From NCBI GenBank assembly GCA_000092065.1, contig CP000582.1: a stretch of DNA of 64,000 nucleotides; one strand, given 5' to 3'. The position numbers and the translations under genes are program-made. Every line of letters begins with the position of its first letter. Position 1 is the stretch's first letter. The notes beneath the pieces were generated by a model. That model searched no databases. It was given only the letters and a program-made list of their open reading frames with translations, and had not been told where the DNA came from. Below are positions 3,429-24,623 of the stretch, one piece after another. The DNA is from Ostreococcus lucimarinus (Eukaryota).

Positions 3429-3518
3429 GGAAAAATTTATATATCGCCCCTTTAGAGAGTACCTACACACATGACGAGTCATGAACCGTGGATATATACG
3501 TATTTTACACCGTTTAGT
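3429..3518. repeat. Left terminal inverted repeat (90 nt)
   Basis: ggaaaaatttatatatcgcccctttagagagtacctacacacatgacgagtcatgaaccgtggatatatacgtattttacaccgtttagt; its reverse complement is at 4192..4279. Confidence 0.8.
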
Positions 3519-3519
3519 T

Positions 3520-4086
3520 CTAAAAGTTTGATTCTACAACATCTACGAGGTACTTACTAATGCTAATTTGCTCGCCTTTGCTTGCCTTGCGTTTGTGTTC
3601 ATCGACCATCTTCTCGTGCCAGCCCCTCTTCCTGCTCAACGCCGTATCACCCGCCGCGCCTCTCATAGGAATCGCAACCAGGTTCGACATACCGAGCACA
3701 CCATCGCCGTCCATTTTGCTATTCTTGGACATGTTTTGAGACATCTCTCTGTGTGTCTTCAAGTTGTGCATGAAACGTTGAAGTTTGTCGAGCGCGTCTG
3801 TGATGTGTGCGGCTTCATCAGGCTCGAACGTAAACTCCGGATCGAGTGCGAGTTGTATCATCTCGGTACACGATTGAACCCAGCGTGACTTTACACTCAC
3901 GTTGTCGAAAGCTGCTCCAAGGCTTCTCCGATGAGTTGGTAGAGAGGCTTCAACATTATCTGGAATCGCTGGAGTCACGTGTCTCCTGGAATCGCTGGAG
4001 TCACGTGTCTCCTGGAGCCCGGACGATACGTGAAGAGCATCACCGAACGGATCGTCGAAGGGATCATCGTCGCACTCGTCTTCCAT
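3520..4086 (-). CDS. Hypothetical acidic protein encoded inside the TIR element (188 aa; N-terminal DDDPFDDPF, C-terminal basic SRKRGWHEKMVDEHKRKASKGE)
   Basis: Longest ORF in the element core. It might be the accessory DNA-binding ORF of a Harbinger-type element, but no clear Myb/SANT motif is seen. A 26-nt tandem duplication lies within it. Confidence 0.25.
   Translation of the reverse strand: MEDECDDDPFDDPFGDALHVSSGLQETRDSSDSRRHVTPAIPDNVEASLPTHRRSLGAAFDNVSVKSRWVQSCTEMIQLALDPEFTFEPDEAAHITDALDKLQRFMHNLKTHREMSQNMSKNSKMDGDGVLGMSNLVAIPMRGAAGDTALSRKRGWHEKMVDEHKRKASKGEQISISKYLVDVVESNF
3961..4012. repeat. Tandem duplication, 2 x 26 nt (tggaatcgctggagtcacgtgtctcc)
   Basis: Exact direct repeat read in the sequence. 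Being 26 nt rather than 27, it would shift the frame of any ORF crossing it. Confidence 0.85.
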
Positions 4087-4191
4087 CCGACCATCGCCCG
4101 CACGCGCGACGACAACTGGCGCGACAGGCGTGGAAAAGACACGAGGCGAACGTGTTTTTCACCAAGGTAGGAATACTCTATTGTAGATGGC

Positions 4192-4279
4192 ACTAAACGG
4201 TGTAAAATACGTATATATCCACGGTTCATGACTCGTCATGTGTGTAGGTACTCTCTAAAGGGGCGATATAAATTTTTCC
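4192..4279. repeat. Right terminal inverted repeat (88 nt)
   Basis: Reverse complement of 3429..3518. Confidence 0.8.
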
Positions 4280-4445
4280 CCCCGAACGCGTTTTTTGAAC
4301 GCGCCGGGGTTTAGCGAAACGCGATGGCGCAACCGTCGCGTTCGCGCGCCCGCCAGTGCGCGGTGCGGCCGCGGCCGCCCGCGGGTGCGCGTGAGTAGTT
4401 CGAGGTGATTCCGACGCGTCGCGTCCGCACGTCGTCGCGCGCCGA

Positions 4446-8354: not shown

Positions 8355-8671
8355 ACACGGCTACAACTCGATCAGAAATACATTTTGTCACCTGTTCATG
8401 TGCCTCCGCGATGCCCGACGCGCGTGCGCGCCACGACAGCAGCGTGAAAGTGACGGGGATGCGCGACGGGCCGAGCGAGTTCAAAAAAAGGACGAAAGGG
8501 CACCGGATTCGAGGTTTTCGTCGACAGTGGGTCATGACGAGTCACAAACGTTCGACTTAAATATGTAAAATGATAGGAAAACCTTAATGCAATGGGTCAT
8601 AATAGCTGAATATATATGGTTTCTCGTCGTAATGGACAAAAGTTGCTTTCATAAAAATAAGGATGTAGTTG

Positions 8672-10646: not shown

Positions 10647-13600
10647 GTGACATATGACATCGTATTACAACGTTTTACCCCCACTTCGCAAGGACCGACC
10701 ACCCCATATCCATGTGCTATAAAAGCTAACTCAAAATGGAAGCTCGTACGTCTGAAACGCTTGGCGCTCGAGCGTTTCCGATGTCCGATGTTAACGCGCC
10801 ACAAACCGGAGAGCGTTCAGAATGGTACGCCCCGAAATGAATCACGAATGAGCAATCTAGACACACGCGCTATGTCGAACCCTTACTTTCAGGTCGGGCG
10901 ATGGGACTGCACGGACGAGCTCGAGGGGTGTCAATTCTCCGCGCCACATACGTCGGTGTCAGTTCCTAATTTCGAAGAGATTCAGACCCTTCACTACACC
11001 TGCGTGTATGAAGTGGCGATCACGTGTACACAGCGGCATGATATGCATAACGATGAGTTCGCGCATGTACTTAGTTCTGTCATCGAGCTCGCAAATCGCG
11101 TTGACCTGACACGACTTAGGCAACATCACTCCATAGATAACTTTGCCACACACGTTCTCACTTTTCGGTTCATTCTGGACCTGTTGAGGCAAACTTATCA
11201 GGAATACATCAAAGGAAGCATAGAAAATAATTCGTTTGAGCATGTCGAATTTACTTTCAACAATTGCATGGATGGTACGCACGGAATGGCAACATGCTTT
11301 AAACCGAATAAAAAGCATAGTCACCTTTGTTACATTTTGGATATTTCGCAGGCAGAAAGAAGTTGCAATGGTCGTACTGATGACACAAAATGCGTGCACG
11401 ACAAAATTACTATGAACGATCGCGTTCTTTCCGCGGCTAAGATCCCAGACAACGCAGTGAATAAACAATTCAGTGCTAGTATACTCAATGATGTGTATGG
11501 TTTCGATTCAAGTCTGTTCCATATTTCTCAGTCGGAAACCCTCTGCATGGACCCACAACAACGACTATTACTTCTTGCAGCAGCAGACTTATACCTGAGT
11601 AACACACGTGTTTGTCAACACGACGACTCCTTCTGCGTGCACGTCGGTGTATCGTGGAATGACTTTGAGGAAATTCGCAGAAAGTATAGTGCAGACTTTT
11701 TCTCCACTTATGATTCGACGGGAACATCAATAAGTGTCGCATCGGGTAGAATTGCGTATTATTTTGATTTCAAAGGGTGTGCTGTGACGATTGATACGGC
11801 TTGTTCATCATCTTTGGTTGCGTTGCATCAATCCATGTACGCAGCTGGCTCGCTCCGTGAATCAAGTGCACTTGTATGTGGCATCAACTTGATTTTGACA
11901 ACCACGATGACACATCGATTTCAGCTTGCTGGAATGATGTCTTCAGAGCATCGATGTATGACATTTGATGCACGCGCGGATGGCTACGTCCGGAGTGAGG
12001 CATGCAACATCGTACTCTTACACTTCAATGGCTTCACAAAAACTCATAGGAATGTACTGCGGCATGACGTTCATATGTCATGCGTCGTCAATCAAGATGG
12101 AACATCAACTGGACTTACGGCACCTAATGGAACAGCTCAGCGGAACCTGATGAATGAGTTACTATCGGACGTTTATAACCCTTCAAAACACGTTGGTGCT
12201 AAAATACATGCCCACGGCACAGGTACGCCTCTTGGGGATCCGATAGAGGTGTTTGCTATCAATTCTGCCCTCTCGTTTTCGTCACTGTGCAGGCTGTATG
12301 TGTCAGAAAAGTCGATGCGAGGGCACACAGAACCTGCTTCAGGTCTATGCAGCACCATACTTGCTTTCGTATCAGGTGCACAGTGCAAGCTACATGGTCA
12401 ACCACATTTACAGCAGTTAAACAATCATATACTAACATCGGTTGATGAAAGTATTTTTCAGCGTTCACTGCATTCCAGTTTTCCCTTAACTTCTATGGCG
12501 AGTGTCACCACAGTAAGCTCCTTCGCGTTCCAAGGGACGAACGCAATGGCTTCACTGACATATATCGACAAATGCAGTATTAGAGTGATTCGCAACACGT
12601 CAGGTCTGAGATCTTTGGTCAAGTTGGAGACTGAATCCCCTGTAAGACTCCCGTACACATTTTCTTGCCTTAGCATCGTCAATGGGAAAATGATACAGCT
12701 AACTTCAATGATTCACGACAAAACATTGAAGCGACTTTTGGATCATCGTGTAGCTGATATGCATCTTATGCCAGCCACAGGCCATCTTGAACTTGAAAGA
12801 GAGCTCACGAAGTGCGCTCTCGTAAGGAATGAACCATATCTTCTGACAAAGATCGCATTTATGCTGCCTCTCAAGCTTGATGAAAGCAATCAACTTATCA
12901 CAGAGATGAACACACATGGTCGCTTACGCGTTGGATGTGGCTCTGGCATATCCAATTACTGGTGTAGTACTGCACGACTTCAAATACCAGTAGGACGTGC
13001 CTGGTGCACGGACCGTACTTTTTATCTGACTAGTAAACTCGTTTCTCGGCGTTTCAAAGGTGCGACCGCAACAATAGCAGGGACGACGCCAATTCTCGAT
13101 TCACAAAATGTCGTGAATCCGTGTATCCAGGATGCGAGTCTACAATGCTCTGCATACGTCTTGAACACGTCAGCTTTCGCATCTGATACAACCTACATGG
13201 ACTGCGTATCGTTACTTAAGCTACCAACAACAATTCAAGACGTCATAGTTGTTAATCAGACAGGAAAAATACTTGTTAGATCGACGCATGTTGACATGTT
13301 GCAGAAGACGCAGCATGTGACTGAAAGTAATAACTCTGTCACAAGTAACTCTTCGAGTAACAATAAAACGCAGACATGGATACATCGTTTACTGTGTAAA
13401 GTATCAACCGTACGGATGAAAGCTGGCTTACGCACTCGCACATGCTTGGAACTCGCGAGATTGTTGTACCACGCGAGACAACAAAGAGTGCTGATATCAA
13501 ATATGCAAAACTTGCGTGAAGTAGGCAGTTTACATGCTCCAGAACTGATGCCCATCATGCGCGAAATGGGTCGTAAGTCAATGCAAGATATTAATTCGGC

Positions 13601-16600
13601 TAGTGCCTCTCTTTGCGCGGTTGCGCTGCTGCAGGCTTGCGGCGCTCGTGCGCGCGTTTCCGGCGCCCACGTGCGTGCAAACGACATCGTCCACGAGGAC
13701 GCTTCGGCCGCGCCCGCAGTCTGTGGATCGTGCGTGCGCGCCACCGTGCAATCTTCCGCGCAGGAACGCAGCGAGCCATTGGTGCTGAGTGTCGCGAGCG
13801 CCCCGCACACCGCGCCAGCCCGAGCGTTGCGATCGATCGCCGCCGGGGCGTCGATCGCCGGGGCGCTGTGCGTTGAGCGGCTGCTTCCGGCGTTCGGTCG
13901 CCGGACGCCCGCCGCGTCGCGCGACGGCGCGGCGACGACCACGGCGTCGCCGGCACCGAAAGTCTCGAGCGTGTTCGTGACTGGCGGTCTGGGCGCGTTG
14001 GGTCAGACTTCGGCGGCGTGGTACGCGCATCGAGGCGTTCGCCACGCCTACTTGACTGGTCGCCGCGGGCGCGGAGAGTCCCTTCTGCTGCGATGGTCGT
14101 CGCGCGGCGGTACCGACGTGAGCGCATTGCACGTGCTTCGCGTCGACGCGTGTGCGACCGACGAGGCGTCGTACGGCGGTGCGCGCGCGCACGCGCGCGT
14201 GCGCGCACACGGCGTGCTGCACGCGGGCGGCGTGCTACGCGACTCTTTGACTGCTCGCCAATCCGCGTCGGCCCATCGATACGTGTGGTCGTCCAAAGTA
14301 GTGTCCGCGCACGCATTGCTCCGCCAGTGCGTCGGCGTCGAGCGCGGCGCGCGTCACATCGCGCTGTTCTCGTCGGTGGCGGCGCTGCTGGGGAGTCCAG
14401 GGCAATGCAACTACAGCGCGGCCAACGCCGCGCTGGACGCGCGAGCCGCACACGAGTGGTGCCGCGGGTACGCGGTGCAATCCGTGCAGTGGGGCGCGTG
14501 GGACGGCGCGGGAATGGCGCTGACAAACGCGTCTGTACTCAGGAACGCGCGCACGACAGGCATCGGCGTGCTCGATCCGCAAGCCGGGCTCGGGGCCGTA
14601 CACGTCGCGCTTCAGGGCGCATCAGTGACGGGTCGCTGGCGGGCAATCCAAGGCGTCCTGGCCGTCGTCCCGTTCCAGTGGTCCGTGCTCGCGCGCGCGC
14701 AGCGCTCGCGCGCGCTGATTGCGGAGTACCGCGCGGAGTCGGCGCGGTCGAGCGCTCCAGTCGCCGTCCATCCGGGCGCCGAGGAAGACGCGGCGCGCGA
14801 TGTGTCAGATGAGAGCGTGCGGCAGATCGTGGCCTCCGCCGTGACGCGCGCGCTCGGCAGAGACGTGTCGGTGGACGCGTCGCTCATGGAAGAGGGCCTA
14901 GACTCGCTCGCGGCGGTCGAGCTCGGAGGGGCGTTACAAAAGGAAACGGGCGTGAACATGCCGGCCACGCTGGCATTTGACTACCCGACGATCACCGCGA
15001 TATCTGGGTACCTGAAGGGTGCGATGCTGGCGCGATCGCGTGCGCGCCAATCGAGCGGCGCGGCGTCCAGCGCCGCTCGCACGCGCGCCGCGAGCGGCGC
15101 GGTCGCGCATTCGCGCGACTCGATGCCAGGTATTGCATCCAACGCGCGCGAAATCTTGGGTCTTGCGCCCGTTGTTATGGCCATCAGACGGAGCGTGCGA
15201 CGACTCGACGCGGATGATCGAGAGCCAAAGCCTGCTCGACATGGCGGCTCGGCGTTGTTTTCATCGTTCGTGAGGTGCGTCATGGCAGAGCGAGCCTCTG
15301 AAGATCGCTTCGACACGCCATCGTTGGGCAGGCAGCCGAGCGCGACAGCGCGCGTGGTCTCCTTGACGAAAGCCAGAGATTTCACTACACAAGCTCTCGA
15401 CAGCATGCCGAAATGCAACGAGATTGAGCTGAGCGTCGTCAGCGCTGTGTCGAGTAAGGCATCAGGCGCGCACGATGCCGTGCGTGTGAACAACATGCGA
15501 CATGCGTGCGGCGAAGTGTGTGATCCACAAAGCTCAAAATCGCACGAGTTCGTCGCTCGGCGTCTTGTGCAGTTTGGGTACTTCATCGAGCGCAGCTTGT
15601 TTGACGGGGAGCAGTTCTCCGTAACGGCGCACGAGGCGCGGTTGATGGACCCGCAGCAGCGCGTGCTCCTGGAGAACGCGCTCGCCGCGACGAGTGCGAC
15701 GCCGCACAGCGCGCCGAAGCCAGCCACAGCCGTGTCCGTCGGCGCTTGGACGTCTCAGTACGCAGACATGTGCCGCGTGTACGAGCCAACGCCGGGGCCG
15801 TACTCTGGCGTTGCTTCCGCCTTGAGCGTGCTGTGCGGTCGCGTATCGTACACGTTTGGTATGCGTGGCCCGTCCGTGTGTGTCGACACCGCGTGCTCCT
15901 CCTCGCTCGTGGCCGCGCATGTTGCGAGCTCTCACTTGCGCGATGGATCGTGCGAGGACGCCCTCGTCGCCGGCGTGAGCGTGAACGTCGGCATCGGCAC
16001 CTTCCTCGTGGCCACCGCCGCGAGCATGCTATCGTTCGATGGTCGGTGCAAAACCTTGGATGCCAGCGCCGACGGTTACGCCAAGGGCGAGTGCTGCGTG
16101 GTCCTGCGCGTGTCGGTGGACGGGGCGAGCGCTGGAGCGCCCAAAGCGCCCGATCTTCCAAACGCCGAGTCTCCCTCTCTCGCTCTTCTCGAACAGACCG
16201 GTGTGAACCAGGATGGACGGTCGAGCTCGCTCACCGCACCAAACGGGCCGTCGCAGCAGGCACTCGTGGCCGATGCGCTTCTCCGCTCGGGGCTGCACGG
16301 CGACGCGCTCGGCAGGCTGGAGATGCACGGCACGGGTACTTCGCTGGGAGATCCGATAGAGGTCGGCGCCGCGCTTGAGGTTCTCGCGCCGCCGACGCGC
16401 GCGGACCGGGCGCCGTCCAGGGGCCCCGCGCTCACGCTTGAGGGCGTGAAGCCACGCGCTGGCCACTGCGAACCAGGGGCTGGCGCGGTTGGGTTGCTGT
16501 TTGCGATGGCAAACTTGACGGAGCGAGCCGTCGCGTCCCTCGTCCACCTGCGCCAGCTCAACCCTCACGTCGAGGCCGCGACGCGCCGAAACGCACCGTC

Positions 16601-19600
16601 GCCGCATGCGCGCGCGCCGGTGCTCGCGCGACAAGGCATGCCGCGACCGGATGACGGCGCGTCTGAGGCTGGAGCAGCGGACGCTGCTCGAGCGCGCGTG
16701 CGGCGATCCGGCGTGAGCGGCTTCGCGTTCCAGGGCACAAACGCGCACGCAATCATGGCCCGGGGACCCGGACAGGCGACTGCGCCCGGGTACACGGGAA
16801 GCACGCACACGGCGGCGCGTGCGTGGGAGCGTCAGCGCCACTGGTGCGCGCCAGAACGGCACTGCCTCATCGAGTCCGTGCGCGCTCTGCATCCTCGCGA
16901 GGGAGACTCGAGCGCGTTGGCGCGGTCGTGCGTGCGCCTGTGTCGGTCCGCGTCGCTCGCTGGCATGCTTGATCACGCCGTCGGGCTCCGGACGCTGCTA
17001 CCAGGCACAGCGCACGTCGAGATATGTCGAGCCATGGCGGGCGCGCTGGCAGACCAGCCGCTCGCCGACATCTCGCTGTCGCACGTATCTTTTGCAGCGC
17101 CCCTCGAGCTTCGAGCGCCGACGACCGACGTGCTGTGCGACGTCACGCCGCAAGGCGTGGCCCGCGTGGGCGTGCGCGTGTCGTCGTCCTCTGCCGCCGC
17201 GCCGTTCCTCGCGGGCGCGCTCAGCCGCAGAAGCGCCTCAAGAATTACTGCGTCTCCGGCGCACCTCTCGCGAGGACCGGCGATGCCCGCGCTGGACGTG
17301 CAGCCTTGTGTTCACGGCGCGAGCTGGCTGCGCTCGTCGCAGCGACGAGGCCCGGGCGCGGAGCACCGCGTGTACGGCGACATACGCGCGCGTCAGATGT
17401 CCACGCTGTCGGCTGCGGCGTATCACTCGCCGCCCGCAGTGCTCGATGCCGCGCTGCACGCGCTCAGCGCGTGCGCGCCGCCGCCGGGTAGCGATGCGAC
17501 AGAAGAGAGCCCGCACGTCCCGGCCACGATCGGCGGCGTCCGCACGCGAGGCGGGCACTCGGACATATACCGCGCCCGGTTCGCGCTCGCGACGGCTCCG
17601 CCTGAGCGCGGGGAGCGGAACGCGTCCACGCGCAGATCTCGTCACCACCTGTGGGACTGGTCGAGTCTTTCGGCGGCGCATCGAGGGTGCGTGGTGCACG
17701 CGCTGGAGTCTCGACGACTCGGTGGCGCCGCGGTCGTGCGCTCGCGAGCACAACAGCGCTCGAGGGCACCGCCGCCGCGTCGCGCGGCCGCGCCGCGTGT
17801 GCTTTATGGAGTCGGGCAACAGCGCGCGTGCGGCGCGGCGGATGGCCAGGGCGCGCGTCGACGCTCAACCCTCAACTCGCAGTGCTTTGTGGACGACGCG
17901 TCGCACCGCCGCGAGCTGATGGAGACCCACGCGTCACCATCGATCGCGCAAGGCAGCACGCGAAGCAGCACGCGCGCCTCTCTTTGCGCGGTTGCGCTGC
18001 TGCAGGCTTGCGGCGCTCGTGCGCGCGTTTCCGGCGCCCACGTGCGTGCAAACGACATCGTCCACGAGGACGCTTCGGCCGCGCCCGCAGTCTGTGGATC
18101 GTGCGTGCGCGCCACCGTGCAGTCTTCCGCGCAGGAACGCAGCGAGCCATTGGTGCTGAGTGTCGCGAGCGCCCCGCACACCGCGCCAGCCCGAGCGTTG
18201 CGATCGATCGCCGCCGGGGCGTCGATCGCCGGGGCGCTGTGCGTTGAGCGTCTGCTTCCGACGTTCGGTCGCCGGACGCCCGCCGCGTCGCGCGACGGCG
18301 CGGCGACGACCACGGCGTCGCCGGCACCGAAAGTCTCGAGCGTGTTCGTGACTGGCGGTCTGGGCGCGTTGGGTCAGACTTCGGCGGCGTGGTACGCGCA
18401 TCGAGGCGTTCGCCACGCCTACTTGACTGGTCGCCGCGGGCGCGGAGAGTCCCTTCTGCTGCGATGGTCGTCGCGCGGCGGTACCGACGTGAGCGCATTG
18501 CACGTGCTTCGCGTCGACGCGTGTGCGACCGACGAGGCGTCGTACGGCGGTGCGCGCGCGCACGCGCGCGTGCGCGCACACGGCGTGCTGCACGCGGGCG
18601 GCGTGCTACGCGACTCTTTGACTGCTCGCCAATCCGCGTCGGCCCATCGATACGTGTGGTCGTCCAAAGTAGTGTCCGCGCACGCATTGCTCCGCCAGTG
18701 CGTCGGCGTCGAGCGCGGCGCGCGTCACATCGCGCTGTTCTCGTCGGTGGCGGCGCTGCTGGGGAGTCCAGGGCAATGCAACTACAGCGCGGCCAACGCC
18801 GCGCTGGACGCGCGAGCCGCACACGAGTGGTGCCGCGGGTACGCGGTGCAATCCGTGCAGTGGGGCGCGTGGGACGGCGCGGGAATGGCGCTGACAAACG
18901 CGTCTGTACTCAGGAACGCGCGCACGACAGGCATCGGCGTGCTCGATCCGCAAGCCGGGCTCGGGGCCGTACACGTCGCGCTTCAGGGCGCATCAGTGAC
19001 GGGTCGCTGGCGGGCAATCCAAGGCGTCCTGGCCGTCGTCCCGTTCCAGTGGTCCGTGCTCGCGCGCGCGCAGCGCTCGCGCGCGCTGATTGCGGAGTAC
19101 CGCGCGGAGTCGGCGCGGTCGAGCGCTCCAGTCGCCGTCCATCCGGGCGCCGAGGAAGACGCGGCGCGCGATGTGTCAGATGAGAGCGTGCGGCAGATCG
19201 TGGCCTCCGCCGTGACGCGCGCGCTCGGCAGAGACGTGTCGGTGGACGCGTCGCTCATGGAAGAGGGCCTAGACTCGCTCGCGGCGGTCGAGCTCGGAGG
19301 GGCGTTACAAAAGGAAACGGGCGTGAACATGCCGGCCACGCTGGCATTTGACTACCCGACGATCACCGCGATATCTGGGTACCTGAAGGGTGCGATGCTG
19401 GCGCGATCGCGTGCGCGCCAATCGAGCGGCGCGGCGTCCAGCGCCGCTCGCACGCGCGCCGCGAGCGGCGCGGTCGCGCATTCGCGACGTACAACCATTA
19501 CTCAGCTCCCTCGTCTACGTCTATCATACGTTCCGCATGAAGTCAGCCGACGAACGACTCTTGGCATTAGCGGTCAATATTCTCACGAGCTTAGACACTT

Positions 19601-22600
19601 TAGCTCTGCGGGACCTTCGACCAGTAACTTTGAGGGAGTCCTCTTTGTTCGCATTCATAACTCCACCAAGCCCTTACCCGTGCATCCATATTTCATTGGC
19701 AACTTTTTGCGTTGTGACGAACTCGAGTTCGGCTTGTTTGGCGCACCGCACAGCGAATGGACTACTCTGGACGCGCGGCAGATTCTCTTGATTGAGAGTG
19801 TACACACTATCCAGCTGAACAACAGTTCAGACGTTTCATTGCGCACTCTAGAGACGACGGCTGTTCTTGTTGGAGCACAAGCGGTAGATTCAACTGACGA
19901 GCATAGCGTTGAGATACAGTACAACGCCTACTCTGGCGTTGCTTCCGCCTTGAGCGTGCTGTGCGGTCGCGTATCGTACACGTTTGGTATGCGTGGCCCG
20001 TCCGTGTGTGTCGACACCGCGTGCTCCTCCTCGCTCGTGGCCGCGCATGTTGCGAGCTCTCACTTGCGCGATGGATCGTGCGAGGACGCCCTCGTCGCCG
20101 GCGTGAGCGTGAACGTCGGCATCGGCACCTTCCTCGTGGCCACCGCCGCGAGCATGCTATCGTTCGATGGTCGGTGCAAAACCTTGGATGCCAGCGCCGA
20201 CGGTTACGCCAAGGGCGAGTGCTGCGTGGTCCTGCGCGTGTCGGTGGACGGGGCGAGCGCTGGAGCGCCCAAAGCGCCCGATCTTCCAAACGCCGAGTCT
20301 CCCTCTCTCGCTCTTCTCGAACAGACCGGTGTGAACCAGGATGGACGGTCGAGCTCGCTCACCGCACCAAACGGGCCGTCGCAGCAGGCACTCGTGGCCG
20401 ATGCGCTTCTCCGCTCGGGGCTGCACGGCGACGCGCTCGGCAGGCTGGAGATGCACGGCACGGGTACTTCGCTGGGAGATCCGATAGAGGTCGGCGCCGC
20501 GCTTGAGGTTCTCGCGCCGCCGACGCGCGCGGACCGGGCGCCGTCCAGGGGCCCCGCGCTCACGCTTGAGGGCGTGAAGCCACGCGCTGGCCACTGCGAA
20601 CCAGGGGCTGGCGCGGTTGGGTTGCTGTTTGCGATGGCAAACTTGACGGAGCGAGCCGTCGCGTCCCTCGTCCACCTGCGCCAGCTCAACCCTCACGTCG
20701 AGGCCGCGACGCGCCGAAACGCACCGTCGCCGCATGCGCGCGCGCCGGTGCTCGCGCGACAAGGCATGCCGCGACCGGATGACGGCGCGTCTGAGGCTGG
20801 AGCAGCGGACGCTGCTCGAGCGCGCGTGCGGCGATCCGGCGTGAGCGGCTTCGCGTTCCAGGGCACAAACGCGCACGCAATCATGGCCCGGGGACCCGGA
20901 CAGGCGACTGCGCCCGGGTACACGGGAAGCACGCACACGGCGGCGCGTGCGTGGGAGCGTCAGCGCCACTGGTGCGCGCCAGAACGGCACTGCCTCATCG
21001 AGTCCGTGCGCGCTCTTCATCCTCGCGAGGGAGACTCGAGCGCGTTGGCGCGGTCGTGCGTGCGCCTGTGTCGGTCCGCGTCGCTCGCTGGCATGCTTGA
21101 TCACGCCATCGGGCTCCGGACGCTACTACCAGGCACAGCGCACGTCGAGATATGTCGAGCCATGGCGGGCGCGCTGGCAGACCAGCCGCTCGCCGACATC
21201 TCGCTGTCGCACGTATCTTTTGCAGCGCCCCTCGAGCTTCGAGCGCCGACGACCGACGTGCTGTGCGACGTCACGCCGCAAGGCGTGGCCCGCGTGGGCG
21301 TGCGCGTGTCGTCGTCCTCTGCCGCCGCGCCGTTCCTCGCGGGCGCGCTCAGCCGCAGAAGCGCCTCAAGAATTACTGCGTCTCCGGCGCACCTCTCGCG
21401 AGGACCGGCGATGCCCGCGCTGGACGTGCAGCCTTGTGTTCACGGCGCCATCAGACGGAGCGTGCGACGACTCGACGCGGATGATCGAGAGCCAAAGCCT
21501 GCTCGACATGGCGGCTCGGCGTTGTTTTCATCGTTCGTGAGGTGCGTCATGGCAGAGCGAGCCTCTGAAGATCGCTTCGACACGCCATCGTTGGGCAGGC
21601 AGCCGAGCGCGACAGCGCGCGTGGTCTCCTTGACGAAAGCCAGAGATTTCACTACACAAGCTCTCGACAGCATGCCGAAATGCAACGAGATTGAGCTGAG
21701 CGTCGTCAGCGCTGTGTCGAGTAAGGCATCAGGCGCGCACGATGCTGTGCGTGTGAACAACATGCGACATGCGTGCGGCGAAGTGTGTGATCCACAAAGC
21801 TCAAAATCGCACGAGTTCGTCGCTCGGCATCTTGTGCAGTTTGGGTACTTCATCGAGCGCAGCTTGTTTGACGGGGAGCAGTTCTCCGTAACGGCGCACG
21901 AGGCGCGGTTGATGGACCCGCAGCAGCGCGTGCTCCTGGAGAACGCGCTCGCCGCGACGAGCGCGACGCCGCACAGCGCGCCGAAGCCAGCCACAGCCGT
22001 GTCCGTCGGCGCTTGGACGTCTCAGTACGCAGACATGTGCCGCGTGTACGAGCCAACGCCGGGGCCGTACTCTGGCGTTGCTTCCGCCTTGAGCGTGCTG
22101 TGCGGTCGCGTATCGTACACGTTTGGTATGCGTGGCCCGTCCGTGTGTGTCGACACCGCGTGCTCCTCCTCGCTCGTGGCCGCGCATGTTGCGAGCTCTC
22201 ACTTGCGCGATGGATCGTGCGAGGACGCCCTCGTCGCCGGCGTGAGCGTGAACGTCGGCATCGGCACCTTCCTCGTGGCCACCGCCGCGAGCATGCTATC
22301 GTTCGATGGTCGGTGCAAAACCTTGGATGCCAGCGCCGACGGTTACGCCAAGGGCGAGTGCTGCGTGGTCCTGCGCGTGTCGGTGGACGGGGCGAGCGCT
22401 GGAGCGCCCAAAGCGCCCGATCTTCCAAACGCCGAGTCTCCCTCTCTCGCTCTTCTCGAACAGACCGGTGTGAACCAGGATGGACGGTCGAGCTCGCTCA
22501 CCGCACCAAACGGGCCGTCGCAGCAGGCACTCGTGGCCGATGCGCTTCTCCGCTCGGGGCTGCACGGCGACGCGCTCGGCAGGCTGGAGATGCACGGCAC

Positions 22601-24623
22601 AGGTACTTCGCTGGGAGATCCGATAGAGGTCGGCGCCGCGCTTGAGGTTCTCGCGCCGCCGACGCGCGCGGACCGGGCGCCGTCCAGGCCCCCCGCGCTC
22701 ACGCTTGAGGGCGTGAAGCCACGCGCTGGCCACTGCGAACCAGGGGCTGGCGCGGTTGGGTTGCTGTTTGCGATGGCAAACTTGACGGAGCGAGCCGTCG
22801 CGTCCCTCGTCCACCTGCGCCAGCTCAACCCTCACGTCGAGGCCGCGACGCGCCGAAACGCACCGTCGCCGCATGCGCGCGCGCCGGTGCTCGCGCGACA
22901 AGGCATGCCGCGACCGGATGACGGCGCGTCTGAGGCTGGAGCAGCGGACGCTGCTCGAGCGCGCGTGCGGCGATCCGGCGTGAGCGGCTTCGCGTTCCAG
23001 GGCACAAACGCGCACGCAATCATGGCCCGGGGACCCGGACAGGCGACTGCGCCCGGGTACACGGGAAGCACGCACACGGCGGCGCGTGCGTGGGAGCGTC
23101 AGCGCCACTGGTGCGCGCCAGAACGGCACTGCCTCATCGAGTCCGTGCGCGCTCTTCATCCTCGCGAGGGAGACTCGAGCGCGTTGGCGCGGTCGTGCGT
23201 GCGCCTGTGTCGGTCCGCGTCGCTCGCTGGCATGCTTGATCACGCCATCGGGCTCCGGACGCTACTACCAGGCACAGCGCACGTCGAGATATGTCGAGCC
23301 ATGGCGGGCGCGCTGGCAGACCAGCCGCTCGCCGACATCTCGCTGTCGCACGTATCTTTTGCAGCGCCCCTCGAGCTTCGAGCGCCGACGACCGACGTGC
23401 TGTGCGACGTCACGCCGCAAGGCGTGGCCCGCGTGGGCGTGCGCGTGTCGTCGTCCTCTGCCGCCGCGCCGTTCCTCGCGGGCGCGCTCAGCCGCAGAAG
23501 CGCCTCAAGAATTACTGCGTCTCCGGCGCACCTCTCGCGAGGACCGGCGATGCCCGCGCTGGACGTGCAGCCTTGTGTTCACGGCGCGAGCTGGCTGCGC
23601 TCGTCGCAGCGACGAGGCCCGGGCGCGGAGCACCGCGTGTACGGCGACATACGCGCGCGTCAGATGTCCACGCTGTCGGCTGCGGCGTATCACTCGCCGC
23701 CCGCAGTGCTCGATGCCGCGCTGCACGCGCTCAGCGCGTGCGCGCCGCCGCCGGGTAGCGATGCGACAGAAGAGAGCCCGCACGTCCCGGCCACGATCGG
23801 CGGCGTCCGCACGCGAGGCGGGCACTCGGACATGTACCGCGCCCGGTTCGCGCTCGCGACGGCTCCGCCTGAGCGCGGGGAGCGGAACGCGTCCACGCGC
23901 AGATCTCGTCACCACCTGTGGGACTGGTCGAGTCTTTCGGCGGCGCATCGAGGGTGCGTGGTGCACGCGCTGGAGTCTCGACGACTCGGTGGCCTCACGA
24001 CGAATTCATTTTATCATAGCTTTACGTCTACGCAGGCATATAAGTTGGCTCATATTCCACGGCCAGACATCCTATCGCAGTCTTTCACTTCAATGAAGAC
24101 TATAAATGCTGTCGACAAAGCTAGCAGCACATTTACAGAACGCAGTAGTGATGCGATGGAAATTGTTAACGCCGTGCAACGCGAGATTTTGGAAATTTTA
24201 TCAACATTAACGACCAGTCCTGTAAGTTTAGATGATACACTTGCGAGCCACGGATTGGACTCACTGGGCATTGCATATTTTTTTATTCAAGTTGGCAAAC
24301 GGTTCAATGTTGAAGTGACTGTTGACAGTCTTGGCACGAACACCACAGTCAGTAGTATAGTGCATCAGATATCACAGATGCTTAGTGCAAGGGTGATTTT
24401 CCTACACACCAAGGACCTGGTGCGCGAGCGAAAAGCCGACAGCTCCTCAAGAAGAGGAAGGAGCACTGCGATCACATCGATGGTGTCTGCATACCGTCGA
24501 CACTTGCAGTCAACTGAATTCGAGCCCAAAGCCTGTTTTGCAAGAGGCGTACTTGCTTGCGCAATATTTACTATATTTATCATTGCGTACGGATATCACG
24601 CACACAGATTCGACATGTTTTAG
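10647..24623 (+). CDS. Type I modular polyketide synthase, AT-less (trans-AT-like); domain order KS-DH-[KR-ACP-KS-DH]x2-KS-DH-ACP with a C-terminal hydrophobic tail; 4658 aa, single intronless ORF
   Basis: KS motifs: EAxxMDPQQRLLLE-like CMDPQQRLLLL and RLMDPQQRVLLE; active-site DTACSSSLVALH / DTACSSSLVAAH; HGTGTPLGDPIE / HGTGTSLGDPIE; FQGTNAH. DH motifs: LLDHRVADMHLMPATGHLE and LDHAVGLRTLLPGTAHVE plus DAALHAL. KR motifs: VFVTGGLGALG (NADPH site) and SPGQCNYSAANAALD. ACP motifs: EEGLDSLAAVEL and terminal ASHGLDSLGIAYF. No GHSxG acyltransferase motif and no ER anywhere. The true start Met may be internal (for example MSNLDTRAMSNPYF). Confidence 0.85.
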   Translation: MTYDIVLQRFTPTSQGPTTPYPCAIKANSKWKLVRLKRLALERFRCPMLTRHKPESVQNGTPRNESRMSNLDTRAMSNPYFQVGRWDCTDELEGCQFSAPHTSVSVPNFEEIQTLHYTCVYEVAITCTQRHDMHNDEFAHVLSSVIELANRVDLTRLRQHHSIDNFATHVLTFRFILDLLRQTYQEYIKGSIENNSFEHVEFTFNNCMDGTHGMATCFKPNKKHSHLCYILDISQAERSCNGRTDDTKCVHDKITMNDRVLSAAKIPDNAVNKQFSASILNDVYGFDSSLFHISQSETLCMDPQQRLLLLAAADLYLSNTRVCQHDDSFCVHVGVSWNDFEEIRRKYSADFFSTYDSTGTSISVASGRIAYYFDFKGCAVTIDTACSSSLVALHQSMYAAGSLRESSALVCGINLILTTTMTHRFQLAGMMSSEHRCMTFDARADGYVRSEACNIVLLHFNGFTKTHRNVLRHDVHMSCVVNQDGTSTGLTAPNGTAQRNLMNELLSDVYNPSKHVGAKIHAHGTGTPLGDPIEVFAINSALSFSSLCRLYVSEKSMRGHTEPASGLCSTILAFVSGAQCKLHGQPHLQQLNNHILTSVDESIFQRSLHSSFPLTSMASVTTVSSFAFQGTNAMASLTYIDKCSIRVIRNTSGLRSLVKLETESPVRLPYTFSCLSIVNGKMIQLTSMIHDKTLKRLLDHRVADMHLMPATGHLELERELTKCALVRNEPYLLTKIAFMLPLKLDESNQLITEMNTHGRLRVGCGSGISNYWCSTARLQIPVGRAWCTDRTFYLTSKLVSRRFKGATATIAGTTPILDSQNVVNPCIQDASLQCSAYVLNTSAFASDTTYMDCVSLLKLPTTIQDVIVVNQTGKILVRSTHVDMLQKTQHVTESNNSVTSNSSSNNKTQTWIHRLLCKVSTVRMKAGLRTRTCLELARLLYHARQQRVLISNMQNLREVGSLHAPELMPIMREMGRKSMQDINSASASLCAVALLQACGARARVSGAHVRANDIVHEDASAAPAVCGSCVRATVQSSAQERSEPLVLSVASAPHTAPARALRSIAAGASIAGALCVERLLPAFGRRTPAASRDGAATTTASPAPKVSSVFVTGGLGALGQTSAAWYAHRGVRHAYLTGRRGRGESLLLRWSSRGGTDVSALHVLRVDACATDEASYGGARAHARVRAHGVLHAGGVLRDSLTARQSASAHRYVWSSKVVSAHALLRQCVGVERGARHIALFSSVAALLGSPGQCNYSAANAALDARAAHEWCRGYAVQSVQWGAWDGAGMALTNASVLRNARTTGIGVLDPQAGLGAVHVALQGASVTGRWRAIQGVLAVVPFQWSVLARAQRSRALIAEYRAESARSSAPVAVHPGAEEDAARDVSDESVRQIVASAVTRALGRDVSVDASLMEEGLDSLAAVELGGALQKETGVNMPATLAFDYPTITAISGYLKGAMLARSRARQSSGAASSAARTRAASGAVAHSRDSMPGIASNAREILGLAPVVMAIRRSVRRLDADDREPKPARHGGSALFSSFVRCVMAERASEDRFDTPSLGRQPSATARVVSLTKARDFTTQALDSMPKCNEIELSVVSAVSSKASGAHDAVRVNNMRHACGEVCDPQSSKSHEFVARRLVQFGYFIERSLFDGEQFSVTAHEARLMDPQQRVLLENALAATSATPHSAPKPATAVSVGAWTSQYADMCRVYEPTPGPYSGVASALSVLCGRVSYTFGMRGPSVCVDTACSSSLVAAHVASSHLRDGSCEDALVAGVSVNVGIGTFLVATAASMLSFDGRCKTLDASADGYAKGECCVVLRVSVDGASAGAPKAPDLPNAESPSLALLEQTGVNQDGRSSSLTAPNGPSQQALVADALLRSGLHGDALGRLEMHGTGTSLGDPIEVGAALEVLAPPTRADRAPSRGPALTLEGVKPRAGHCEPGAGAVGLLFAMANLTERAVASLVHLRQLNPHVEAATRRNAPSPHARAPVLARQGMPRPDDGASEAGAADAARARVRRSGVSGFAFQGTNAHAIMARGPGQATAPGYTGSTHTAARAWERQRHWCAPERHCLIESVRALHPREGDSSALARSCVRLCRSASLAGMLDHAVGLRTLLPGTAHVEICRAMAGALADQPLADISLSHVSFAAPLELRAPTTDVLCDVTPQGVARVGVRVSSSSAAAPFLAGALSRRSASRITASPAHLSRGPAMPALDVQPCVHGASWLRSSQRRGPGAEHRVYGDIRARQMSTLSAAAYHSPPAVLDAALHALSACAPPPGSDATEESPHVPATIGGVRTRGGHSDIYRARFALATAPPERGERNASTRRSRHHLWDWSSLSAAHRGCVVHALESRRLGGAAVVRSRAQQRSRAPPPRRAAAPRVLYGVGQQRACGAADGQGARRRSTLNSQCFVDDASHRRELMETHASPSIAQGSTRSSTRASLCAVALLQACGARARVSGAHVRANDIVHEDASAAPAVCGSCVRATVQSSAQERSEPLVLSVASAPHTAPARALRSIAAGASIAGALCVERLLPTFGRRTPAASRDGAATTTASPAPKVSSVFVTGGLGALGQTSAAWYAHRGVRHAYLTGRRGRGESLLLRWSSRGGTDVSALHVLRVDACATDEASYGGARAHARVRAHGVLHAGGVLRDSLTARQSASAHRYVWSSKVVSAHALLRQCVGVERGARHIALFSSVAALLGSPGQCNYSAANAALDARAAHEWCRGYAVQSVQWGAWDGAGMALTNASVLRNARTTGIGVLDPQAGLGAVHVALQGASVTGRWRAIQGVLAVVPFQWSVLARAQRSRALIAEYRAESARSSAPVAVHPGAEEDAARDVSDESVRQIVASAVTRALGRDVSVDASLMEEGLDSLAAVELGGALQKETGVNMPATLAFDYPTITAISGYLKGAMLARSRARQSSGAASSAARTRAASGAVAHSRRTTITQLPRLRLSYVPHEVSRRTTLGISGQYSHELRHFSSAGPSTSNFEGVLFVRIHNSTKPLPVHPYFIGNFLRCDELEFGLFGAPHSEWTTLDARQILLIESVHTIQLNNSSDVSLRTLETTAVLVGAQAVDSTDEHSVEIQYNAYSGVASALSVLCGRVSYTFGMRGPSVCVDTACSSSLVAAHVASSHLRDGSCEDALVAGVSVNVGIGTFLVATAASMLSFDGRCKTLDASADGYAKGECCVVLRVSVDGASAGAPKAPDLPNAESPSLALLEQTGVNQDGRSSSLTAPNGPSQQALVADALLRSGLHGDALGRLEMHGTGTSLGDPIEVGAALEVLAPPTRADRAPSRGPALTLEGVKPRAGHCEPGAGAVGLLFAMANLTERAVASLVHLRQLNPHVEAATRRNAPSPHARAPVLARQGMPRPDDGASEAGAADAARARVRRSGVSGFAFQGTNAHAIMARGPGQATAPGYTGSTHTAARAWERQRHWCAPERHCLIESVRALHPREGDSSALARSCVRLCRSASLAGMLDHAIGLRTLLPGTAHVEICRAMAGALADQPLADISLSHVSFAAPLELRAPTTDVLCDVTPQGVARVGVRVSSSSAAAPFLAGALSRRSASRITASPAHLSRGPAMPALDVQPCVHGAIRRSVRRLDADDREPKPARHGGSALFSSFVRCVMAERASEDRFDTPSLGRQPSATARVVSLTKARDFTTQALDSMPKCNEIELSVVSAVSSKASGAHDAVRVNNMRHACGEVCDPQSSKSHEFVARHLVQFGYFIERSLFDGEQFSVTAHEARLMDPQQRVLLENALAATSATPHSAPKPATAVSVGAWTSQYADMCRVYEPTPGPYSGVASALSVLCGRVSYTFGMRGPSVCVDTACSSSLVAAHVASSHLRDGSCEDALVAGVSVNVGIGTFLVATAASMLSFDGRCKTLDASADGYAKGECCVVLRVSVDGASAGAPKAPDLPNAESPSLALLEQTGVNQDGRSSSLTAPNGPSQQALVADALLRSGLHGDALGRLEMHGTGTSLGDPIEVGAALEVLAPPTRADRAPSRPPALTLEGVKPRAGHCEPGAGAVGLLFAMANLTERAVASLVHLRQLNPHVEAATRRNAPSPHARAPVLARQGMPRPDDGASEAGAADAARARVRRSGVSGFAFQGTNAHAIMARGPGQATAPGYTGSTHTAARAWERQRHWCAPERHCLIESVRALHPREGDSSALARSCVRLCRSASLAGMLDHAIGLRTLLPGTAHVEICRAMAGALADQPLADISLSHVSFAAPLELRAPTTDVLCDVTPQGVARVGVRVSSSSAAAPFLAGALSRRSASRITASPAHLSRGPAMPALDVQPCVHGASWLRSSQRRGPGAEHRVYGDIRARQMSTLSAAAYHSPPAVLDAALHALSACAPPPGSDATEESPHVPATIGGVRTRGGHSDMYRARFALATAPPERGERNASTRRSRHHLWDWSSLSAAHRGCVVHALESRRLGGLTTNSFYHSFTSTQAYKLAHIPRPDILSQSFTSMKTINAVDKASSTFTERSSDAMEIVNAVQREILEILSTLTTSPVSLDDTLASHGLDSLGIAYFFIQVGKRFNVEVTVDSLGTNTTVSSIVHQISQMLSARVIFLHTKDLVRERKADSSSRRGRSTAITSMVSAYRRHLQSTEFEPKACFARGVLACAIFTIFIIAYGYHAHRFDMF
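13605..23993. repeat. 10.4-kb block of near-identical tandem segmental duplications inside the PKS ORF. Segments: a 13605-15115 = 17976-19486 (KR-ACP). b2 15182-15800 = 21449-22067 (linker plus KS N-terminus). c 15801-17320 = 19929-21448 = 22068-23587 (KS core plus DH N-half). d 17321-17975, partial copy 23588-23993. Order is a-b-c-d-a-b'-c-b2-c-d'.
   Basis: The offsets 4371, 4128 and 6267 nt were verified at several junctions. Copies differ by only a few SNPs (for example caatcttcc/cagtcttcc, gagcggctg/gagcgtctg, RRLVQ/RHLVQ, SRGP/SRPP). The block is about 70% GC against about 47% in the flanks. Confidence 0.85.
19487..19928 (+). repeat. Divergent low-GC paralogue (b') of the linker / KS-N-terminus segment, replacing the 685-nt GC-rich b segment in module copy 2
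   Basis: It encodes FGLFGAPHSEWTTLDARQILLIESVHTIQ...TAVLVGAQAVDSTDEHSVEIQYNAYSGVAS. This aligns with FSVTAHEARLMDPQQRVLLENALAATSA...TAVSVGAWTSQYADMCRVYEPTPGPYSGVAS of the other copies. Nucleotide composition resembles the host flanks. Confidence 0.7.

Follow-up and report, generated by a model that had tools for sequence, protein, structure and literature searches.

A low-GC, single-copy segment amid near-identical GC-rich module parts of a giant polyketide synthase gene in Ostreococcus lucimarinus

A 442-nt segment of low GC content, here called b', lies within an array of GC-rich repeats in a giant polyketide synthase (PKS) gene of O. lucimarinus. On balance, and with slightly more confidence than doubt, we read b' as a single-copy, fast-evolving piece of the PKS amid GC-rich module parts homogenised by recombination, that is, as an outcome of concerted evolution. 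b' is a real coding sequence and part of the PKS. Judged from their sequences, b' and its GC-rich counterpart b are paralogues that parted long ago, and b did not arise directly from b'.

The analysed window is a stretch of 64,000 nt from contig CP000582.1 (assembly GCA_000092065.1), and its mean GC content, the PKS core aside, is about 45%. Such a value characterises the atypical low-GC "outlier" region of O. lucimarinus chromosome 2, a recombination-suppressed candidate mating-type locus (PMC5498103), not that of the whole genome, and the description of b' as "host-like" in the original prediction was therefore misleading. The ORF list, the translation and a Pfam scan place a type I (AT-less) PKS ORF of 4658 codons at 10,647-24,623 on the plus strand, with four ketosynthase (KS), two KR and three ACP domains in addition to DH matches, in the order KS1-DH / KR-ACP / KS-DH / KR-ACP / KS(b')-half DH / KS-DH / ACP-tail. 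Near-identical modules have been reported in O. lucimarinus PKSs, whose KS domains number 14, 4 and 4 (PMC4661987), and according to a preprint the big outlier region of the Mamiellales, BOC1, characteristically harbours giant PKS genes of variable structure, a feature that is conserved (bioRxiv 10.1101/2025.04.21.649811). The window also encodes HSP70, STN7-like kinase and DXS proteins, each matching a protein of O. lucimarinus CCE9901 exactly.

The ORF, whose features are all on the plus strand, begins with a low-GC first module, KS1-DH (10,647-13,604; 45% GC, GC3 0.44), which shares no more than about 28% identity with the GC-rich KS-DH modules, and ends with a low-GC tail carrying the terminal ACP (23,994-24,623; 44% GC). 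Between them, self-BLAST delineated a set of repeats. Segment A, comprising KR-ACP and the start of the post-ACP linker, is present as A1 (13,605-15,115) and A2 (17,976-19,486), which are 99.8% identical (3 differences in 1511 nt). A1 is followed by x+b (15,116-15,800), which encodes the ACP-KS linker and the KS N-terminus and whose sub-segment b (15,180-15,796) recurs at 21,447-22,063; by c1 (15,797-17,320), with the KS core and its active-site Cys and His, the KS C-terminal domain and the first half of the DH; by d1 (17,321-17,726), the second half of the DH, repeated at 23,588-23,993; and by the single-copy segment e (17,727-17,975). The block b-c-d (15,180-17,726) returns with 99.6% identity (10 differences in 2547 nt) as b3-c3-d3, the third GC-rich linker-KS-DH unit (21,447-23,993), and c is present three times (15,797-17,320, 19,926-21,448 and 22,064-23,587) at 99.7% identity.

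b' (19,487-19,928) is located between A2 and c2, at the position filled in copy 1 by the 685-nt x+b, exactly the substitution that had been predicted, and the length gap of 243 nt preserves the reading frame. The segments flanking b' are 99.7-99.9% identical to their counterparts in adjacent modules, and in the junction alignments identity is 100% up to every breakpoint, with no similarity past the breakpoints. A 12/15-nt direct repeat, GTACAACCATTACTC / GTACAACGCCTACTC, flanks b' on either side. Segment c2 (19,926-21,448) runs from the KS core to the middle of the DH domain, where it is joined straight to b3 via 2-3 nt of microhomology; the join truncates the DH and leaves the b'-bearing module as a KS and half a DH fused to the next linker, with its own KR and ACP absent. 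Three variable sites in the 5' part of c2 match c1 and three in the 3' part match c3, which indicates that c2 is a recombinant of the two. The differences among repeat copies number only 13 and are unpolarised.

GC content broadly follows copy status. GC3 is 0.77-0.80 in the repeated segments A, c and d (A, 71% GC and GC3 0.80; c, 70% GC and GC3 0.77) and 0.72 in the repeated b (x+b, 62% GC). Among the single-copy segments, GC3 is 0.50 in b' and 0.44 in the KS1 module and tail, the low-GC gene ends having 45% GC overall. With 49.8% GC (GC1/2/3 of 0.56/0.44/0.50), b' is close to the 48% first estimated. The exception is e, which is single-copy yet has 73% GC and a GC3 of 0.77, so low GC in single-copy sequence is no strict rule.

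b' is open in the PKS frame only, each of the five other frames containing 4-12 stops. Its codon-usage log-odds score is +21.8 bits in the PKS frame and -20 to -66 in the other five, and in-frame 441-nt windows of nearby low-GC genes score 30.4 ± 9.4; in its first 70 codons the coding signal from codon usage is ambiguous. The original prediction recognised a KS N-terminus here, and both pairs of peptides that it compared (LDARQILLIES with MDPQQRVLLEN, TAVLVGAQAV with TAVSVGAWTS) are present in the translation. The b' peptide alone gave no match to Pfam PF00109 even at E<=10 (b alone, 33.8 bits), BLASTP of b' against b returned E=0.26, and nucleotide comparison of the two detected no similarity. 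A custom profile built from 160 PKS KS N-termini, leaving out the PKS gene that carries b', scored b' alone at 15.4 bits, a value that 0 of 1000 shuffles attained (shuffle maximum 5.1). On the same profile b'+c scored 179.2, c alone 145.4 and shuffled b'+c 148.5 ± 2.3 (maximum 163.9), b' adding about +34 bits in context. The alignment is collinear, with no break or indel at the b'|c junction, and sets b' residues 71-147 (19,698-19,928) at profile positions 56-135, while PF00109 in context aligns from b' residue 76.

Since the profile match is confined there, the recognisable KS N-terminus is limited to the C-terminal portion of b', and it is strongly diverged. The conserved DPQQR motif is replaced by LDARQI in b', and the O. 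tauri PKS fragment likewise lacks DPQQR at this place (LNVQQL). AlphaFold assigned a pLDDT of 23-37 to residues 1-49, and modelled residues 50-147 with strands at 50-65, helices at 81-122 and a strand at 124-129 (pLDDT 58-93). Sequence profiles and structural models together support a predicted disordered ACP-to-KS linker in approximately the first 49 codons (19,487-19,634), which have no KS profile match, followed by a diverged KS N-terminal subdomain (residues ~50-147; 19,635-19,928). Like the β-ketoacyl synthase N-terminal domain PF00109, this subdomain sits at the first ~135 profile columns, has a matching predicted secondary structure and runs on into c with its DTACSSS active site; it departs from PF00109 in that b' alone falls under the Pfam detection threshold and in the change of DPQQR to DARQI.

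b' and b share only about 22% amino-acid identity. The sequence most closely related to b' comes from the corresponding position in a PKS fragment on O. tauri chromosome 2 (Smith-Waterman z=11.3, ~30% identity), in an alignment that begins at b' residue 12 and is weak in the linker part, and this makes the b'-like lineage look old. In twelve alignment columns b' agrees with O. tauri and not with b, and at 8 of these the shared residue differs from the consensus of the other aligned KSs; overall, the O. tauri segment is about equally near b (27%) and b' (30%). b has a clear relative of its own, P0128/L018 (43% identity, z=30), and by these comparisons both lineages, b-type and b'-type, look old. 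Segments A and c are 73% and 75% identical, respectively, to O. tauri. The GARP/FYMINK ratio across flank, linker and flank is 4.4 / 1.0 / 4.0 in O. tauri, a GC mosaic read from amino-acid composition and not from DNA, against 5.7 / 1.2 / 5.3 in O. lucimarinus, and because O. tauri has the same mosaic, GC-rich-type flanks with a low-GC-type linker appear to be older than the species split. Contig L018, which carries a related tandem PKS, likewise has a drop in GC at the linker and KS N-terminus, to 51-56% versus 60-68% elsewhere.

The locus is structurally polymorphic, with at least three haplotype structures including that of the window. TARA and JGI scaffolds (L011-L014) run from A2 into x+b, and the length of their gene, 3979 aa, is that expected of the structure A-x-b-c-d-e-A-x-b-c-d-tail. 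A 360-kb JGI contig (L005 + L020) has A2 followed by x-b-c, plus two more deletions. The presence of x+b in other natural haplotypes of the species is what one would expect if the homogenised segment can replace b'. b' was absent from 5.8 billion proteins in a word-indexed search, from 1.84 billion cluster representatives searched with HMMER, and from JGI metagenome contigs and IMG/VR, negatives weakened by the fact that among the matches listed in the word-indexed PKS searches none was longer than ~1650 aa and that short-read assemblies break at the PKS repeats (L007-L010, L015-L016). No public record of the exact full-length b'-bearing PKS protein was found. With no other public match, the presence of b' rests on one assembly.

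In the reading that we favour, b' represents the ACP-to-KS linker (~49 residues) and the N-terminal subdomain (~98 residues) of the third KS in a four-KS AT-less PKS. Intragenic recombination, through unequal crossing-over or gene conversion, would keep A and c near-identical across modules, and b' would be left out of this homogenisation because a near-identical partner is absent from the gene. Once excluded, b' would evolve like the surrounding recombination-suppressed low-GC region, fast and toward ~45-50% GC, with the homogenised segments staying at ~70% GC and a GC3 of ~0.8. GC-biased gene conversion in the PKS repeats is plausible, and has been inferred in O. tauri (PMC5498103); it may keep the repeats GC-rich, and exclusion from conversion may have caused the low GC of b'. 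Because b and b' are too different to start conversion, the A and c flanks must supply the homology for any replacement between them, and no direct replacement event of this kind was observed. Which haplotype is the derived one, that with b' or that with x+b, is something we infer under this reading. The b'-bearing haplotype has undergone illegitimate recombination, as its module is odd and microhomology-fused, and b' could belong to that history.

Taken in full, the original prediction would make b' ancestral, the GC-rich b and its block a younger variant produced or spread by GC-biased conversion, and b' the last piece still to be overwritten. Its concerted evolution of the GC-rich flanks is borne out, as their copies are 99.6-99.9% identical to one another compared with 73-75% to O. 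tauri, and c2 is a recombinant. These homogenised flanks, the x+b found after A2 in other haplotypes, and the b'-like low-GC-type segment between GC-type flanks in O. tauri are also compatible with b' being an older sequence under replacement. The derivation of b from b' by GC enrichment, however, does not hold: the low identity and the lack of nucleotide similarity rule out b as a recent GC-shifted derivative, b has its own independent relative, and the O. tauri segment is equally near both. Nor is the GC-rich block evidently younger, a claim contradicted by the O. tauri amino-acid composition mosaic and by the fact that O. tauri also has A and c of the GC-rich type, no more diverged than orthologues ordinarily are. 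We therefore regard the full polarity as unlikely. A secondary import of b' seems to us comparably unlikely. The array would once have been uniformly x+b, and b' would have entered by ectopic recombination or template switching, in the same event as the c2|b3 join, from another low-GC PKS module or a divergent opposite mating-type haplotype. The absence of b' from all other haplotypes and databases searched, the neighbouring DH-truncating microhomology join, the direct repeat on both sides and the two anciently diverged haplotypes of the chromosome-2 low-GC region reported in O. tauri (PMC5498103) are in keeping with such an event, but the donor sequence was found nowhere in our searches, O. 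tauri has the same arrangement of A, low-GC-type linker and c, and a b'|c junction that is in frame, free of indels and at the homologous KS position would be improbable for an illegitimate join.

Decay is less probable again. The KS(b') unit would be nonfunctional, its N-terminus drifting to the local AT-rich equilibrium, as the aberrant architecture (no own ACP or KR, truncated DH), the loss of DPQQR, the very weak Pfam signal and the ambiguous first 70 codons might suggest. Against this, the frame is open for 147 codons at 50% GC with gene-like codon usage, residues 50-147 are predicted to be folded, and the annotated O. tauri PKS fragment is also without DPQQR. An assembly artefact, with wrongly joined repeats and a b' that is chimeric or in the wrong place, is very improbable. 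Repeats of 1.5-2.5 kb at 99.7% identity invite such errors, b' has not been sighted elsewhere, and other assemblies resolve the locus differently; an assembler nonetheless cannot create a 442-nt in-frame, gene-like segment that continues the KS profile and resembles O. tauri, and the four KS domains found here agree with the published count of four for two O. lucimarinus PKSs (PMC4661987).

Viewed as a single-copy piece among homogenised repeats, b' makes a tidy, unsurprising case of concerted evolution. Giant variable PKS genes in this region were already known, and the Mamiellales BOC1 PKS loci share with ours the chromosome region, the gene class, and the gain, loss and rearrangement of modules between strains. 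The accessible text of the BOC1 preprint deals with architecture, transposons, methylation and MNase coverage (bioRxiv 10.1101/2025.04.21.649811); a text search for "GC-rich" and "gene conversion" had no match in it, and the within-gene GC mosaic and low-GC island are apparently not covered there. Concerted evolution between modules is also known for bacterial assembly-line PKSs, the mycolactone PKS being an extreme case (PMC4256081; PMC8256042). As in those systems, paralogous module segments in O. lucimarinus are far closer than orthologous ones, homogenised tracts have sharp ends, and, as in the bacterial model (PMC4256081), over-diverged segments escape homogenisation. Unlike the bacterial genes, this one is eukaryotic and lies in a recombination-suppressed low-GC region, there is a gap of 20-25 GC points between the parts of it that are homogenised and those that are not, and it lacks the GRINS skew signature.

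Enrichment in GC through GC-biased non-allelic gene conversion has also been invoked for multicopy sequences such as histone genes, rDNA and Y-chromosome palindromes. The biased gene conversion hypothesis for such enrichment goes back to Galtier et al. 2001, as cited in PMC5498103. The O. lucimarinus PKS differs from those systems in that the single-copy e is also GC-rich and that the conversion bias is one we infer; it resembles them in that co-converting repeats are GC-rich (GC3 ~0.8) and the single-copy sequences next to them, lying in a region that does not recombine, are AT-rich (GC3 0.44-0.50).

The open reading frame that contains b' runs for 4658 codons on the + strand (10647-24623), and a Pfam scan recovered four KS, two KR and three ACP domains together with DH fragments. 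No AT domain was found, which makes the product a modular type I PKS of the AT-less kind. The GC composition forms a sharp mosaic along the gene, in which a GC-rich block (13605-23993, about 70% GC) is set between a low-GC 5' part (10647-13604, 45% GC) and a low-GC tail (23994-24623, 44% GC). Based on self-BLAST, the repeat segments of the block, all on the + strand, are the KR-ACP repeat A (A1, 13605-15115; A2, 17976-19486; 99.8% identity), b (15180-15796 and 21447-22063), the KS core to mid-DH repeat c (c1, 15797-17320; c2, 19926-21448; c3, 22064-23587; 99.7% identity) and the second DH half d (17321-17726 and 23588-23993), along with the single-copy segments x (15116-15179) and e (17727-17975). 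The segment b' (19487-19928, + strand) lies between A2 and c2, is 442 nt long with 49.8% GC and a GC3 of 0.50, and stands where copy 1 has x+b (15116-15800), which is 685 nt long at 62% GC. At the A2/b' and b'/c2 junctions, 100% identity falls to no similarity within a few bases, which confirms the position, the low GC and the replacement of b in copy 2 that had been described from the sequence. The low-GC first module (KS1-DH, 10647-13604) retains the catalytic motifs DTACSSS and HGTGT, but shares only about 28% identity with the protein's own GC-rich KS-DH units and no more than 37-39% with any database match listed, and is therefore fast-evolving, like b'.

The neighbouring ORFs are eukaryotic (UTP20, XPG, AP-mu, HSP70 and DXS), and three proteins match O. 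lucimarinus CCE9901 entries exactly: HSP70 (ABO94474.1), a kinase annotated as chloroplast STN7 (ABO94720.1) and DXS (ABO94483.1), all on a single contig. This eukaryotic region also encodes an aconitase of bacterial type (AcnB), with Aconitase_B_N and Aconitase_2_N domains (46160-49006). Recombination is suppressed in the low-GC region of chromosome 2, a candidate mating-type locus whose low GC has been attributed to weak biased gene conversion; GC-biased conversion is inferred genome-wide in O. tauri (PMC5498103). Because of this outlier setting, the composition of b', originally called host-like, is that of an atypical region and not that of the genome. Giant type I PKS genes are reported in a preprint (bioRxiv 10.1101/2025.04.21.649811) to be conserved in precisely this region while varying greatly in structure, and the PKSs of O. 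lucimarinus are reported to have 14, 4 and 4 KS domains and near-identical modules (PMC4661987).

Within b', the PKS frame alone is open, each other frame having 4-12 stops. Codon-usage log-odds trained on eleven neighbouring low-GC genes scored the PKS frame at +21.8 bits and the remaining frames at -20 to -66, compared with a mean of 30.4 +/- 9.4 for in-frame 441-nt windows of the training genes; most of the b' signal comes from the last 77 codons. The claim that b' encodes a recognisable, diverged KS N-terminus holds with a qualification. The b' peptide alone had no match to the curated Pfam profile PF00109 at E<=10 (b alone, 33.8 bits), BLASTP of b' against b returned E=0.26, and no nucleotide similarity between the two was found. 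On b'+c, however, the PF00109 alignment starts within b', at residue 76 and profile position 68, with a whole-domain score of 117.4 bits versus 145.1 bits for the copy with b. A family profile built from 160 PKS KS N-terminal halves, with this gene left out, scored b' alone at 15.4 bits, a value reached by 0/1000 shuffles (maximum 5.1). The same profile gave 179.2 bits for b'+c, 145.4 for c alone, 148.5 +/- 2.3 for shuffled b'+c and 220.3 for b+c, and aligned b' residues 71-147 with positions 56-135, gap-free across the b'|c junction. Alignment of b' with b and the Pfam search thus failed, while the family profile detected a collinear homology to type I PKS KS N-termini beyond chance.

An AlphaFold2 model of b'+KS, made from a 50-sequence alignment, left b' residues 1-49 disordered (pLDDT 23-37) and predicted strands at 50-65, helices at 81-122 and a strand at 124-129. 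Residues 50-147 (pLDDT 58-93) were modelled as packed against a confident KS core, a predicted fold compatible with KS. Together, the family-profile match and the model indicate that b' is an ACP-KS linker of about 49 residues followed by a strongly diverged KS N-terminal subdomain.

Several other identities were considered for b'. A hypermutated copy of b did not hold up, since base and purine/pyrimidine-recoded local alignments were no better than shuffles, and a copy of another sequence in the window was rejected because blastn and tblastn matched b' itself only. A spliceosomal intron would be at odds with the open frame and gene-like codon usage, and removal of b' would delete the KS N-terminal subdomain. 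A transposable-element insertion was discarded given the lack of terminal inverted repeats, the lack of other copies in the window and in the public collections searched, and a content of KS coding sequence. A separate observation concerns b' residues 66-89 (HPYFIGNFLRCDELEFGLFGAPHS, 19683-19754), which weakly match PKS residues 78-102 (NPYFQVGRWDCTDELEGCQFSAPHTS, 10878-10952), part of the low-GC leader at the N-terminus (E=0.006-0.046; 2/500 shuffles attain the Smith-Waterman score). This leader stretch is not KS-like by profile, and either represents a possible second relic of the b' lineage or matches by chance.

Searched alone, b' had no match in a word-indexed search of 5.8 billion proteins, in HMMER run over the full set of 1.84 billion cluster representatives, or in JGI metagenome contigs and IMG/VR; the whole PKS protein was not on record in an exact look-up. 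A relative was found in P0124, an O. tauri chromosome-2 PKS fragment that spans KR-ACP, linker/KS N-terminus and KS core and sits on the same contig as the O. tauri DXS. Its linker/KS N-terminus (181 residues), which had no match when scanned against the metagenome, aligns with b' residues 12-136 at a Smith-Waterman score of 85 (z=11.3, 0/1000 shuffles) and with b at 78 (z=9.9). Over the 95 residues preceding the KS core, a multiple alignment gave identities of 30% for b' and O. tauri, 27% for b and O. tauri, 22% for b and b', and 43% for b and P0128. The last is a PKS from the metagenome contig L018, which carries tandem PKS modules, and it scored z=30 against b versus z=0.6 against b'. Twelve alignment columns unite b' with O. 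tauri against b, eight of them off the consensus of the other KS sequences aligned, and 11 unite b with O. tauri against b'. Departures shared by b' and O. tauri include EW for EA and LIE[ST]V for LLExx, and the DPQQR motif is absent from both. From these comparisons, the b type and the b' type read to us as two old paralogous lineages, the O. tauri segment being perhaps slightly nearer b'. The proposal that b is a recent GC-shifted derivative of b' does not fit the low identity of b and b', their lack of nucleotide similarity, or the separate affinity of b to P0128.

The flanks of b' behave differently. Copies of A, b, c and d within the gene are 99.6-99.9% identical, far closer than the O. 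tauri orthologue P0124, which shares 73% of amino acids in A and 75% in c (30% in b'). Only three sites differ between A1 and A2, and 10 between copies 1 and 3 of b-c-d. Since c2 agrees with c1 at three 5' sites (G/G/G at 16334, 16422 and 16423) and with c3 at three 3' sites (T/A/A at 16889, 16980 and 16997), it is a recombinant, and variants are distributed among copies as a mosaic. The concerted evolution suggested for the GC-rich flanks is hence well founded. It is plausible, and has parallels in other multicopy sequences, that GC-biased conversion would keep the homogenised parts GC-rich; the copy differences (n=13) are not polarisable, and GC3 correlates with copy status, with the single-copy segment e (GC3 0.77) as an exception. 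The first roughly 200 nt of the c copies (15775-16000, 19900-20125 and 22075-22225) have T over A, with AT skew of -0.32 to -0.51 and a GC skew of 0.02-0.05; both skews are small elsewhere in the block. A GRINS reading was rejected, as it calls for repeated regions in which intense GC and TA skews are correlated and each exceed 0.15; here, a TA skew of 0.3-0.5 goes with a GC skew of about 0.03.

That the GC-rich block is the younger part, as the original prediction had it, is made less likely by O. tauri. The GARP/FYMINK amino-acid ratio, a GC proxy that reads protein composition and not DNA, is 5.7 in A, 1.2 in b', 2.2 in x+b and 5.3 in c of O. lucimarinus, and 4.4, 1.0 and 4.0 in the A, linker/KS N-terminus and c of O. 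tauri. With the cross-species identities, this shared mosaic suggests that the arrangement of a GC-type KR-ACP, an AT-type fast-evolving linker/KS N-terminus and a GC-type KS core predates the species split. In L018 (61.6% GC overall), the linker/KS N-terminus likewise dips to 51-56% versus 60-68% elsewhere. Another contig (L019, ENA contig_14208; 39% GC, picoeukaryote-like) has several PKS modules of 42-48% GC between flanks of 32-38% GC, and a higher GC in PKS modules than in the DNA around them may therefore be a general feature.

Other natural haplotypes have flanks 99.9% identical to those of the window and a different structure. In scaffolds L011-L014, A2 leads into x+b where the window has b', and the gene length (3979 aa) is exactly that of A-x-b-c-d-e-A-x-b-c-d-tail. 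A 360-kb JGI contig (L005 + L020) reads A2-x-b-c and is then joined to 24238. The second c copy ends early there (window 17175-equivalent, at L020 8044), and the haplotype, in which d is missing and the tail is short of its initial 244 nt, is a third structural allele of the PKS. It also lacks 12837-13604 (768 nt of low-GC PKS directly upstream of A1), with 12836 fused to 13605 at L005 7618/7619 and at about L020 102, where the gene caller splits the PKS. Short-read contigs (L007-L010, L015-L016) break at block edges, and some haplotype paths may therefore be the assembler's choices. Outside the PKS, 3430-8598 (5169 nt, 52.6% GC) is present in the window and in L005, whereas L007-L010 have about 61 nt of unrelated sequence in its place; its ORFs encode a DDE_Tnp_4 (Harbinger-type) transposase, an XPG/FEN1-like nuclease and two smaller products, and its ends showed no terminal inverted repeats.

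The best-supported account of b' is its exclusion from intragenic recombination. As a single-copy, module-specific linker/KS N-terminus, b' would be left out of the exchange that homogenises neighbouring segments, and would match the non-recombining region around it in base composition and in its strong divergence. With module 1 as template and the A and c flanks as homology, conversion could turn a b' haplotype into an x+b haplotype. The opposite direction, a secondary import of b' into this haplotype, would need a donor sequence; we nevertheless keep it alive in view of two features. One is the c2|b3 junction (21440-21455, TTCACGGCGC|CATCAGACGG), a join with 2-3 nt of microhomology that truncates the DH domain and loses segment x, leaving c2 ending mid-DH and fused to b3 and the b'-KS unit thus without a KR or ACP of its own; it looks like the product of an illegitimate recombination, or of the b-c unit having been duplicated in tandem with a period of 2139-2141 nt. 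The other is an imperfect 15-nt direct repeat bracketing b' (19489-19503, GTACAACCATTACTC; 19919-19933, GTACAACGCCTACTC), 12/15 matching and 430 nt apart, for which a rough estimate puts a chance match at both spots below 1%. An assembly artefact is unlikely because of the frame, codon usage, profile continuity and O. tauri similarity.

A broader idea, decidedly tentative, can also be put forward. In a recombination-suppressed, AT-drifting candidate mating-type region, non-allelic conversion between PKS modules might alone have held about 10 kb of coding DNA near a GC3 of 0.8 since before O. tauri and O. lucimarinus split, while pieces that lose their conversion partner (b', the KS1 module and the tail) would slide to a GC3 of about 0.45. 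If so, b' would be a built-in negative control for measuring the strength of GC-biased conversion without allelic recombination.

The Mamiellales chromosome 2 outlier region is thought to be AT-rich through suppressed recombination, and hence suppressed GC-biased conversion. A PKS gene with repeated parts at 70% GC and single-copy parts at 45-50% GC in that region offers a compact natural test of this idea, and would further illustrate the effect of module homogenisation on eukaryotic PKS genes. For PKS biology, it shows that an ACP-KS linker and KS N-terminus specific to one module can persist next to interchangeable catalytic cores. Haplotype-level structural variation in O. lucimarinus is added to that described for O. 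tauri. These findings on b' do not overturn current views: concerted evolution of bacterial PKS modules, near-identical Ostreococcus modules and PKS structural variation in this region are already known. A difference of 20-25 GC points within a single gene of the low-GC region, between its homogenised parts and those that escape homogenisation, seems undescribed. Unlike GRINS, the O. lucimarinus PKS repeats do not carry a GC/TA skew signature; they resemble bacterial PKS modules, for which the same homogenisation, with diverged segments escaping concerted evolution, is established (PMC4256081, PMC8256042).
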